A stretch of 64,000 bases of DNA. Source: Eubacteriales bacterium. GTDB taxonomy: Bacteria; Bacillota; Clostridia; Acetivibrionales; JANLFN01. The notes below the pieces were generated by a model. It ran no database searches. It had not been told where the DNA came from and worked only from the letters and a program-made list of their open reading frames with translations. This document shows, piece after piece, positions 4,871-7,969 of the stretch; position 1 is the first letter of the stretch; each line of letters starts with the position of its first letter. A program made the position numbers and the translations under genes. Location: contig JANLFN010000005.1 of assembly GCA_024655885.1 (NCBI GenBank), positions 116,007 to 180,006 of the forward strand, written 5' to 3'.

Positions 4871-7800
4871 ATGGACGGTAAATTGGCTGTTCGAAGGGCG
4901 GAAGACCTTGAGAATATTAAAAATCAATATTTGAGCGAGAATTCCAGGTACCAGTACAGGGTTCTGGTCTGTTCGGGAGCGGGGTGCATTTCATCCAACT
5001 GCCATGCGGTAAAAGATGCTTTAGTCAAGGCACTGCAGGACAGCAACCTGTGCGACCGGGTTTCGGTGTCGGAGACAGGGTGTATTGGGGACTGTAATCT
5101 GGGCCCTGCCATGGTTGTGCTGCCGGAGGGCGTTTTGTACACAAAATTGGACCCTAAGGATGTAGGCCCTATTGTAGACTCGCATTTTCTAAAGGGCAGG
5201 ATAAGAATGGAGAACACCTATTACGATATCCCAAAGGAAAAACACATCCCCTTTTTAAAAGATATCGACTACTTTAAAAACCAGGTGAAAATCGCGCTGA
5301 GAAACTGCGGAAGGATTGATTACGCCTCTTTGGAGGAATATATAGCCAATGACGGGTATAAATCGATTGCCAGGGTGCTGCAGGACATGACGCCTGCGGA
5401 AGTGGTCAAGGAGATTAAGAAGTCCGGCTTAAGGGGACGCGGGGGCGGAGGCTTTCCCACCGGGGTTAAATGGGAAGAGGGAATGAAAAGCGAAGGGGAT
5501 GTAAAATATATCGTATGCAACGCAGATGAGGGAGACCCTGGCGCCTATATGGACAGGAGCATTTTAGAAGGCGACCCCCACAGCATCATTGAAGGGATGA
5601 TGATCGGCGCATACGCTATAGGCGCCAGCAAGGGCTATGTTTATATCAGGGCGGAATACCCCCTTGCCGTGGAAAGGTTGGACACGGCCATTAAAAAAGC
5701 CCGGGAAGCCGGCCTGCTGGGAGAAAACATACTGGAAAGCGGTTTTAATTTTGAGCTGGAGATAAGAATTGGAGAAGGGGCCTTTGTCTGCGGTGAAGAA
5801 ACGGCACTAATCGCTTCTATTGAAGGTAAAAGGGGAGAACCGGAGCAGAAACCTCCCTACCCGTCTCAAAAGGGCTTATATGGGAAACCCACCGTGATCA
5901 ATAATGTGGAAACCTTTGCGAATATTCCTCCCATTATTTTAAAGGGAAGCGAATGGTTTACGCAGTACGGAACCCAAGGGAGCAAGGGGACCAAAGTGTT
6001 TGCCCTTGCGGGGAGTGTCAATAATGCAGGAATTGTTGAAGTGCCCATGGGAATTACGGTAGGGGATATTGTTTTCAATATTGGGGGAGGCATAAAGAAA
6101 AATAAGCAATTTAAAGCCCTCCAGTCGGGAGGACCTTCGGGAGGCTGCGTCACAAAGGACCATTTAAACACCCCCATTGATTATGACTCCCTGGTCAAGC
6201 TTGGTTCAATCATGGGTTCCGGCGGTTTGATCGCACTGGATGAGGATACCTGCATGGTGGATATGGCAAAGTACTTTATGGAATTCGTCCAGGAAGAATC
6301 CTGCGGCAAATGTGTGCCGTGCAGGGTGGGAACCAAGAGGATGCTGGAAATACTGGAGAGAATCACAAAGGGCGAAGGGCAAAACGGGGATATAGAACTG
6401 CTTCAAGAAATTGGGCAGATGATCAAGGAGACCTCGGTATGCGGGCTGGGGCAGACAGCTCCCAACCCTGTGCTGAGCACCATCAAGAGCTTCAGGGAGG
6501 AGTATGAGGAGCATATCAAGTATAAACACTGCAGGGCCGGTGTTTGCGAGAATATGTTCATTTCTCCCTGCCAGAATGCGTGTCCCGCCGGTGTCAACGT
6601 CCCCGGCTATATTGCGCTGATTGCGGCCGGGAGACTCAGAGATGCCTATAACCTCATCCGGAAGGAGAACCCCTTCCCGGCGGTTTGCGGCAGGGTTTGC
6701 ACCCATCCCTGCGAGAGCAAGTGCAGGAGGGCGCAGCTGGACGACCCTATTGCCATTTCCGACCTGAAGCGGTATGTGACGGACTATGTGTTTAAAAATG
6801 AAGAGCCTTATATGGACCTGGTTTTTCCTAAAAAAGGGATCAGCGTGGGCATCATAGGTGCCGGGCCGTCAGGCCTTACCTGCGGCTATTACCTGGCGAG
6901 GCTGGGATACGATGTGGAGGTCTATGAGGCCCACCAGGTTGCCGGCGGCGTCCTGGCTTTCGGCATACCGGAATTCAGGCTTCCCAAAGATATATTGCAG
7001 CACGAAATCAAGCTTATTGAGCGCGTTGGGGTAAAAATCCATTTGAATACCGAGGTGGGGACGGACATTACTTTTTACCAGCTCCGCAACAAGCATGCGG
7101 CCATTTACATTGCTACAGGAACCCAGTTCCCCCACAAGATCAACATACCTGGGGAAGAATTAAAGGAAGTGTACTACGGCATGGATTTTTTAAGGTATGT
7201 GAGTCTTGGGAAAAAGCCCAAGGTTACGGGTACGGTAGCGGTCATCGGGGGAGGCAATACGGCTGTGGATGCCGCAAGGACAGCCCTGAGGCTGGGAGCA
7301 AAAAAGGTCTATATCCTGTATCGAAGGCTGATTGAAGACATGCCGGCCGACGCCAGGGATGTCAGGGAGGCTATAGAAGAGGGCATTGAAATATTGCCCC
7401 TTGTAACGCCTTTAAGGTTCTTAGGGAAGGACAGGGTCACTGGAGTGGAGTGTATCCGGATGGAGTTCGGAGAATTCGACTCTACGGGAAGAAGAAAACC
7501 GAAGCCTATCCACGGCACCGAGTTTACCATCAAGGTTGATGCGGTTATCCCGGCCATAAGCCTCTATTCGGATTTGCCCTTTATTAATAAAAATGAGGTG
7601 GAAGTCACTCAATGGGGAACTTTTGTGGCGGACAACGATACCCTTATGACCAAGATGAAAGGGGTATTTGCCGGGGGCGATGTAATCCGGGGCTCGGATG
7701 TGGTGATATCTGCCATCGCAGATGGAAAGAAGGCGGCTAAATCCATCGACAAATACCTTGGAGGAAATGGAATTCTTAATACGGGCGAGGATATAGAGAT

Positions 7801-7969
7801 ACCGGAGCCGTCGGACGAGAGGGAAGTAATGGAGCATGAAAGATTCCCCATGAGGTACCTGGATCCCGAGACAAGGAAGTCGTCTTTCGATGAGGTGGCT
7901 GTCGGGTTTTATAAGCTCAATGCGGTTGAAGAGGCCATGAGGTGCTTAAGGTGCGACAGGAGGGCATGA
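4871..7969 (+). CDS. hydB: NuoF/HydB-type flavoprotein subunit fused to a GltD/NfnB-type Fe-S + FAD/NAD(P)H oxidoreductase domain (1032 aa)
   Basis: N-terminal Trx-like 2Fe-2S region (CSGAGC...CIGDCNLGP). NuoF core with [13 protein letters not shown] and [12 protein letters not shown]. This is followed by CQNACPAGV...[33 protein letters not shown] and [14 protein letters not shown]. Confidence 0.88.
   Translation: [1032 protein letters not shown]

Follow-up and report, generated by a model that had tools for sequence, protein, structure and literature searches.

The operon analysed here lies on the forward strand of a 64,000-nucleotide (nt) stretch of contig JANLFN010000005.1 from an Eubacteriales bacterium (hereafter the window, to whose + strand all coordinates refer), and is made up of hydC, a gene in which hydB is fused to a GltD-like module (hydB::gltD, 4871..7969) and hydA. 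We tentatively propose, with a probability that we put at roughly 0.45, that it encodes a cytoplasmic [FeFe]-hydrogenase of the HydABC type (group A3, Bfu-like) in which NADP(H) takes the place of ferredoxin or lies on its path. The fusion combines a bifurcating-type NuoF/HydB core with a permuted GltD/NfnB-type cassette for NADPH, flavin adenine dinucleotide (FAD) and two [4Fe-4S] clusters and, as far as can be judged from the sequence, the complex probably connects hydrogen with NADH as well as NADPH.

The ORF listing of the window gives 4871..7969 as a single open reading frame (ORF) of 1032 amino acids (aa), with an ATG start and no internal stop. Its N-terminal half comprises a thioredoxin-like [2Fe-2S] domain (2Fe-2S_thioredx, PF01257; aa 25-103, nt 4943..5179), with C34, C39, C71 and C75 as candidate ligands conserved in 98-99% of 125 family sequences, the Complex1_51K domain binding flavin mononucleotide (FMN) and NAD(H) (aa 182-353, nt 5414..5929; Pfam E 3e-48), an SLBB domain (aa 377-425) and the helical NADH_4Fe-4S domain (aa 464-548, nt 6260..6514; Pfam E 2e-37), which carries the N3-type [4Fe-4S] of NuoF with ligands C478, C481, C484 and C524 and the motif CGKCVPC at aa 478-484. 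The quoted motif of the FMN/NADH site is found at aa 189-198 (nt 5435-5464); residues G189-P196 and K200 are invariant across the fusion family, G193 almost so, and correspond to the loop 1 that contacts NADH in the C. saccharolyticus NfnB. No Fer4 dicluster was matched after residue 548 in the Pfam scan of the fusion, and the chain enters directly into Fer4_20 (PF14691; aa 555-643, nt 6533..6799; Pfam E 2e-24, from profile position 20), the two-cluster domain of GltD/DPD-type proteins, with CQNACP at aa 567-572 and the Cys motif of C606-C618 at aa 606-618. It is followed by Pyr_redox_2 (aa 659-952, nt 6845..7726; Pfam E 3e-25) with the FAD and NAD(P)H Rossmann folds, marked by GAGPSGL (aa 663-669, nt 6857-6877) and by GGGNTAVD (aa 793-800, nt 7247-7270) with YRR at aa 817-819 (nt 7319-7327), respectively. 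NCBIfam models split the protein likewise, nuoF covering aa 152-549 and the GltD-type PRK12771/PRK12814 running from aa 517/538 to 1029. The 1032-aa NuoF::GltD fusion claimed in the initial annotation is thus confirmed by an uninterrupted frame with Pfam and NCBIfam domains in the order given there; all six protein motifs that it quoted were located in the translated ORF, and the absence of a C-terminal ferredoxin-like domain past the N3 domain is borne out.

The N-terminal half resembles bifurcating enzymes much more than respiratory complex I: nine solved bifurcating B subunits score 741-605 bits against it, versus 330-390 bits for complex I NuoF. The closest solved relatives are the NiFe-HydB of A. 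mobile (741 bits) and the HydB subunits of A. woodii (728 bits) and T. kivui (664 bits); the Nfn/Stn B subunits of C. saccharolyticus and S. ovata and the HydB of T. maritima (605 bits) also match. The FMN/NAD(H) site, the N3-type [4Fe-4S] and the N-terminal thioredoxin-like [2Fe-2S] of HydB are all present; the B3/B4 C-terminal ferredoxin-like domain of Bfu hydrogenases is missing. The BfuBC cofactor set has been described as absolutely conserved in Bfu enzymes (Bfu family paper), and the B3/B4 cysteines are said to be shared by every bifurcating [FeFe] hydrogenase characterised (PMC9499530). Colinearity with HydB runs through the motif H548-IKYKH-C554-RAGV-C559 (nt 6512..6547), which aligns with EAHIRDKKCPAGVC of bifurcating HydBs (8a6t_B, 7q4v_B, 8oh5_B and 7t2r_B) and has EAHIRDKKCPAGVCKHL as its A. 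woodii counterpart, and then ends, the fusion point lying directly 3' of the motif. The mobile B3/B4 domain of T. maritima HydB has as its hinge a Cys3His Zn site, located where the C-terminal domain begins (PMC9499530). C461, H548, C554 and C559, at least 98% conserved in the 125 fusion-family sequences, are candidate ligands of an equivalent Zn site of the 3Cys+1His kind. The hinge motif thus seems to be retained, with the swap beginning right behind it.

The C-terminal half is most similar to modules of NADPH-dependent transhydrogenases, the kinship being judged from bit scores and from a shared permutation. It scores 402 bits against the C. saccharolyticus NfnA of Nfn-Bfu (9bov_A, residues 102-567), 393 bits against T. 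sibiricus NfnA (9n5u_A), 367 bits against T. maritima NfnB (4ylf_B), 339 bits against S. ovata StnC (8oh5_C, residues 102-567), 321 bits against P. furiosus NfnL and 305 bits against Azospirillum GltD. Residues 565-966 of the fusion align to residues 45-462 of T. maritima NfnB, and its last 43 residues match NfnB residues 1-43 (MKNRKTPMKEQSPESRRRNFEEVALGYTLEEALEEAQRCLQCP) as a separate HMMER domain against 4ylf_B (independent E-value 1.6e-4). Since the two pieces that match NfnB stand in swapped order, the cassette represents a circular permutation of NfnB/GltD; a single colinear alignment is obtained to residues 102-567 of 9bov_A and 8oh5_C. The permuted tail (MEHERFPM…FDEVAVGF…; aa 987-1032, nt 7829..7966), homologous to the NfnB N-terminus, contributes C1025 and C1028, and the protein terminates 4 residues past the latter. 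Of the eight ligands that two [4Fe-4S] clusters need, Fer4_20 provides six (C567, C571, C606, C610, C614 and C618), and all eight cysteines are at least 98% conserved in the same 125 sequences. C1025 and C1028 would complete the first [4Fe-4S] cluster together with C567 and one further Cys; by ferredoxin-type logic, the cluster of C567, C1025 and C1028 would lie at the chain's points of entry into and exit from the cassette, adjoining the hinge. Thus, the C-terminal half does align to GltD/NfnB-type proteins, and the module, called complete in the initial annotation, deserves that name if the extreme C-terminus with C1025 and C1028 in RCLRC is counted; the permutation and the tail cysteines had been overlooked. 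The analogy with Stn-type transhydrogenases drawn there holds, the nearest solved relatives including the Stn/Nfn-Bfu cassettes with their identical permuted topology.

Inspection of the second Rossmann fold for specificity residues, as had been suggested, revealed the GGGNTA…YRR pattern of NADPH-dependent homologues: it is identical in five aligned proteins of this kind (NfnB/NfnL/StnC/NfnA), and G793-G795, T797, A798, D800 and Y817-R819 are invariant across the fusion family. This identity and invariance favour NADPH as the preferred nucleotide of the second site, short of proof. The FAD of StnC is non-bifurcating, and StnC differs from NfnB in the geometry of the flavin Arg. Arg201 of NfnB, which contacts the flavin N5, was considered as a marker of a bifurcating FAD and found uninformative here, because this Arg is conserved in NfnB, StnC and the fusion alike.

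The fused architecture is shared by a large family. In a word-indexed protein search the best 120 of 8000 scored relatives were all 1023-1106 aa long, with 96-100% query coverage and 69-100% identity; one of them, MCR4435495.1 from a Clostridiales/Eubacteriales metagenome-assembled genome (MAG), is identical to the window protein, and the cultured Hydrogenispora ethanolica is also among the carriers. We compared 11 species-level genome loci drawn from Oscillospiraceae, Clostridiaceae, Peptococcaceae, Hungateiclostridiaceae and Tissierellales MAGs, and the order hydC-fusion-hydA was found in 10 of them; the remaining locus (L008) is cut upstream and displays only the fusion and hydA. GC content, overall and at third codon positions (GC3), is alike in both halves of the fusion gene. 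The initial annotation had named a stop between the NuoF and GltD parts as the sign of an artefact; there is no such stop, and on the sequence data the fusion is real. Two interrupted copies were considered as evidence for split genes and rejected. In a Peptococcaceae MAG (L005) a single in-frame TAA (~9384-9386) replaces the Lys of DTAKYFMEF at residue ~466, well away from the junction; it reflects either a sequencing error or a pseudogene. Locus L011 is full of frameshifts, and the breaks in both loci are noise from assembly or pseudogenes.

When 1.84 billion representatives were scanned exhaustively with HMMER, the close family of the window protein fell into one 50%-identity cluster (P0121), besides which several divergent clusters of full-length fusions were found. 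The RCLRCD tail is present in all of the divergent clades. The proteins of P0122, P0128, P0133 and P0136 end just past it, like the window protein, and those of P0138, P0147, P0162 and P0177 continue behind the cassette into a Cys-rich stretch, for which a Fer4 dicluster is scored in P0147 and P0162; in all four clusters the cassette looks as if it were inserted upstream of a B3/B4-like domain instead of replacing it. Fusions of 38-46% identity occur with non-hydrogenase partners: next to NuoE and a 403-aa NuoG-like FeS protein without H-cluster (P0122; L012, 927-4094), next to a molybdopterin oxidoreductase and a 4Fe-4S protein (P0147; L013, 6001-9117) and near CCG/HdrA-like genes (L009, 2274-5453). 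NuoF::GltD therefore appears to be a modular dual-nucleotide diaphorase, the window protein belonging to a hydrogenase-linked branch without ferredoxin domain and being one ordinary member of a large and widespread family. The scan also returned stand-alone or N3-domain-only proteins of 500-650 aa with the same permuted cassette and RCLRCD end (P0187, P0189 and P0196); some of them start in the N3 domain of NuoF, at its last helices, and may be split fusions or gene-call fragments.

The proposed mechanism builds on the structures of Bfu enzymes, in which the bifurcation site is placed at the FMN, the adjacent [4Fe-4S] of the B subunit and the [2Fe-2S] of HydC/NfnC, a swinging C-terminal domain of HydC takes the low-potential electron to B3/B4 and then to ferredoxin, and ferredoxin binds between this HydC domain and the B3/B4 domain. 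In the window complex, H2 would be oxidised at the H-cluster and its electrons would pass by way of the clusters of HydA and the N3-type one to FMN, where hydride would be exchanged with NAD(H). The branch through the HydC [2Fe-2S], which in HydABC leads to B3/B4 and ferredoxin, would instead enter the two [4Fe-4S] clusters of the cassette; these would pass electrons to FAD, which would gather two of them and reduce NADP+, acting, by analogy with StnC, as a non-bifurcating converter between two- and one-electron transfer. The net reaction would be 2 H2 + NAD+ + NADP+ <-> NADH + NADPH, with NADP(H) as the lower-potential partner replacing free ferredoxin. Everything up to the hinge is kept and B3/B4 is replaced, so that placing NADP(H) at the end of the ferredoxin branch is the most economical reading. 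It is supported by the fact that core, hinge, HydC and HydA are all closest to parts of bifurcating enzymes, the best solved relatives of HydC being the HydC subunits of the bifurcating hydrogenases of A. woodii (7q4v_C; 163 bits) and T. kivui (8a6t_C), and those of HydA the HydA1 subunits of A. woodii (579 bits) and T. kivui. The initial annotation had suggested coupling of H2 and ferredoxin to both NADH and NADPH. The link to NADPH is likely on the motifs described above; the part of ferredoxin is doubtful and was the weakest element of that suggestion, since the exit domain B3/B4 is exactly what has been replaced. With the physiological potentials given in the Bfu paper (NADH ~-280 mV, NADPH ~-380 mV, ferredoxin ~-500 mV and H2 -414 mV at 1 bar), the calculated H2 balance lies at ~1.4e-3 bar for the pair NADH/NADPH, versus ~0.15 bar for NADH/ferredoxin, which fits H2 evolution in low-H2 anaerobic consortia or an H2-driven supply of NADPH.

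A stricter form of this proposal, in which the complex is a ferredoxin-independent Bfu enzyme whose core of FMN, [2Fe-2S] and [4Fe-4S] splits the electrons of H2 between NAD+ as high-potential acceptor and NADP+ as low-potential acceptor reached through the cassette, the two being obligatorily coupled, is conceivable and we hold it with considerable doubt. Several points weigh against replacement of ferredoxin by NADP(H). Our literature search retrieved no activity data for any member of the fusion family. Routing the low-potential electron of a Bfu core to NADP+ wastes driving force compared with ferredoxin. Some of the distant fusions keep a ferredoxin-like domain, and hence the cassette can coexist with a ferredoxin branch. 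The sequence would also be compatible with NADH at the FAD site, with NADPH at the FMN site or with NfnB-like docking of ferredoxin on the clusters of the cassette. Finally, the full-length AlphaFold2 model, built on a 39-sequence alignment, is poor (mean predicted local distance difference test score, pLDDT, of 66, with the cluster regions and residues 971-1032 below 50) and yields no usable distances between clusters.

Among the alternatives, the one that survives best, unlikely as we judge it, is a merged Hyd and Nfn enzyme in which an NADP(H) port has been added and ferredoxin is still used, docking at the outer [4Fe-4S] of the cassette, in the manner of NfnB, or at HydA, so that H2, NAD(H), NADP(H) and ferredoxin would be balanced together by one complex. 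In its scores the cassette stands no farther from T. maritima NfnB (367 bits) than from StnC (339 bits). Like T. maritima NfnB, and unlike the three Stn/Nfn-Bfu cassettes, it has retained the first Cys of CGRVC. In NfnAB the two [4Fe-4S] clusters of NfnB lead to ferredoxin, which speaks for such an enzyme, as does the full conservation of the rest of the Bfu core, needless if the complex were non-bifurcating. However, the ferredoxin site mapped in Bfu enzymes lies between the C-terminal domain of HydC and the B3/B4 domain, the latter missing from the window complex. The operon encodes no partner of NfnA/PyrK type, and in the single case tested the permuted topology of Stn type goes with a non-bifurcating FAD.

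Less likely still would be an uncoupled hydrogenase of dual specificity, in which the FMN and FAD sites are independent ports on one iron-sulfur wire and nothing is bifurcated, as in the HydAB/HydABC of syntrophs with an NADPH option added. GltD-type modules in glutamate synthase are plain inputs from NADPH into FeS clusters, and HydA carries the PGAP name 'NADH-dependent [FeFe] hydrogenase, group A6' (NF040763), both in keeping with this alternative. In the same direction, HydB proteins without the C-terminal clusters have been tied to non-bifurcating enzymes, according to what PMC9499530 relays of Losey 2017/2020 and to the Bfu definition. Against it stand a HydC of bifurcating type, the hinge motif and the [2Fe-2S] domain at the N-terminus of HydB, all kept and highly conserved; that characterised non-bifurcating relatives are devoid of the C-terminal clusters of the Bfu cofactor set (Bfu paper; PMC9499530) is likewise counted against it.

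It is very improbable that the GltD module ties the hydrogenase to glutamate metabolism, as suggested in the Vallitalea genome paper (PMC6163223), or, through a GltB-type partner or with polysulfide as in SudA, to some other acceptor in place of free NADP(H): GltD-family modules do serve many partners, but neither gltB nor another partner gene occurs within the terminator-bounded operon, and the nearest relatives of the cassette are NADPH:ferredoxin/NAD transhydrogenase modules (367-402 bits) rather than the small subunit of glutamate synthase (305 bits). An assembly or frameshift artefact joining two separate genes can be dismissed, given the uninterrupted ORF, the full length of 120/120 best relatives, the several divergent fusion clusters among the 1.84 billion representatives and the tail cysteines, needed for the first cluster and conserved only in a fused or permuted context.

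The remaining genes of the operon are those expected for a HydABC-type enzyme, and the set of NuoE, NuoF::GltD and HydA named in the initial annotation is borne out by Pfam and NCBIfam matches. hydC (4329..4829) encodes the NuoE-like subunit with a thioredoxin-like [2Fe-2S] (C1) and matches 2Fe-2S_thioredx (PF01257) over its full length (E 6e-53); its mechanically called ORF starts at 4296, the ATG at 4329 with an upstream AGGAGG being the likelier start. The hydA product (7966..9753) contains Fe_hyd_lg_C (E 4e-96), Fe_hyd_SSU, Fer2_4, NADH-G_4Fe-4S_3 and Fer4, and scores 842 bits against NF040763 (cutoff 765 bits). Translation may begin at ATG 7966, overlapping the TGA of hydB (7967-7969), or at ATG 7972 behind an AGGAGG; the overlap suggests translational coupling. 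The Ser at the usual second Cys of the HydA L1 motif (TSCSPGW) was considered as an anomaly and rejected, as the motif is identical in the functional HydA1 of A. woodii. Directly 3' of hydA, a hairpin with a 20-bp stem (9767..9813) is likely the terminator closing the three-gene operon, within which the Pfam scan detected no extra ferredoxin gene, no NfnA/PyrK-like partner and no gltB.

Downstream, 9920..14180 encodes a DRTGG protein, a HATPase, a HydS-like protein (Fe_hyd_lg_C and PF04060), a PHP protein and a second HATPase, identified by Pfam, with a promoter-like site (9838-9866) between the terminator and this gene set. Its order recurs in three of the compared loci (L001, L003 and L007) and hence the set looks like an H2-sensing regulatory module. 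The H-cluster maturase genes hydG and hydE (49834..52421) lie ~40 kb downstream of the hydrogenase operon and score above the cutoff with TIGR03955 (489 bits) and TIGR03956 (546 bits), which indicates that the organism makes an active [FeFe]-hydrogenase cofactor; hydF was not seen among the scanned window ORFs. Elsewhere in the window, a 561-aa protein (1941-3626) displays the unusual pairing of a uridine-kinase/PRK domain (residues 295-497) with a stretch weakly similar to the N-terminus of threonyl-tRNA ligase (residues 91-208). Patches of low GC content (0.36-0.38 versus ~0.46 elsewhere) were found at 24001-26000, 36001-38000 and 44001-46000, the last of them adjoining a tyrosine recombinase of XerC/D type (45843-46727), and the ORF at 23991-24971 has no Pfam match.

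For Bfu enzymes it is a matter of debate at which cofactors the electron pair is split and what part the mobile C-terminal domains of HydC and HydB play. The fusion family keeps the whole of the proposed bifurcating core and swaps the ferredoxin-reducing domain for an NADPH/FAD module, and is therefore a natural test of whether this core needs ferredoxin. Should the ferredoxin-independent reading be true, the complex would be an H2-driven generator of coupled NADH and NADPH or, in reverse, an H2 producer confurcating NADH and NADPH; it would represent a natural domain swap bearing on the disputed role of the B3/B4 branch. In physiological terms, the enzyme would couple H2 directly with the anabolic NADPH pool of many uncultured fermenters of Clostridia type, altering models of their redox balance. 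Databases label the fusion 'NuoF' or 'FAD-dependent oxidoreductase' and HydA 'NADH-dependent hydrogenase', so that the link to NADPH is invisible in metagenome annotation today.

The architecture has been annotated before (2018). In Vallitalea guaymasensis L81 (peg.3894-3896), Schouw et al. 2018 (PMC6163223) reported a HydB enlarged by a GltD domain; theirs is a genome annotation, compared here by its description, that contains no sequence analysis of the cassette, permutation or biochemistry. Greening et al. 2024 described archaeal hybrid [FeFe]/[NiFe] hydrogenase complexes whose HydB carries a 'glutamate synthase (GltA) domain' and proposed this domain, on modelling and not on assays, as a site for a low-potential acceptor; these complexes, likened to ours by description only, are archaeal, have five subunits and include other partners. 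A NuoF::GltD HydB studied by biochemistry or structure determination was not found in the literature outside subscription-only papers, which the search did not cover. GltD, glutamate synthase, NfnB or a fusion are not mentioned in the Bfu family paper, nor are GltD, glutamate, pyridine nucleotide, NADPH or an 'additional domain' in the HydB paper of Losey 2020.

In relation to the HydABC hydrogenases of A. woodii, T. kivui and T. maritima (group A3, Bfu), the window operon has the same three genes in the same order, and HydA, HydC and residues 1-560 of the fusion are closest to their solved chains (579, 163 and 728 bits, respectively, for A. woodii). The N-terminal [2Fe-2S], the FMN/NADH site and the N3-type cluster are shared, and the Cys/His motif of the candidate hinge aligns with theirs. 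The window polypeptide differs in exchanging the B3/B4 domain for a ~470-aa NADPH-FAD-2x[4Fe-4S] cassette, which adds to it another flavin (FAD) and another nucleotide site; because the conserved B3/B4 clusters are missing, we do not file the complex as a canonical Bfu hydrogenase.

The GltD-associated [FeFe]-hydrogenases of group A2 consist of HydA and a separate GltD-like subunit, without subunits of NuoE or NuoF type. The window operon does encode NuoE- and NuoF-like parts, with its GltD part joined to NuoF in one polypeptide. With NfnB/NfnL (of NfnAB/NfnSL) and GltD the cassette has in common the Fer4_20, FAD and NADPH folds, the YRR motif and a conserved EFRLP arginine. Those proteins are unpermuted, with the first CxxC at the N-terminus, and stand alone, in contrast to the permuted and fused window module, and their partners, NfnA/PyrK-like or GltB, are not encoded in the window operon. 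In NfnB, the FAD is itself the bifurcating site.

The closest parallel for the cassette is found in StnABC/NfnABC of S. ovata, C. saccharolyticus and T. sibiricus, which likewise combine a NuoE/NuoF-like core with a GltD/NfnL-like NADPH module. Their cassettes have the same permuted topology, starting with …PC…ACP and ending with …EA.RCL.C, and the same YRR motif. The window module has all eight cluster cysteines, whereas three Stn/Nfn-Bfu cassettes are without the first Cys of CGRVC; in S. ovata StnC, Lys170 is found at the cluster concerned. Integration of a GltD cassette into a NuoG-like subunit had been noted previously for StnC. In the Stn/Nfn-Bfu enzymes the cassette is inserted in a NuoG-like A subunit devoid of H-cluster and the B subunit keeps B3/B4, whereas in the window complex it is the B subunit that carries the cassette, where B3/B4 would otherwise be, and the A subunit is a true HydA.

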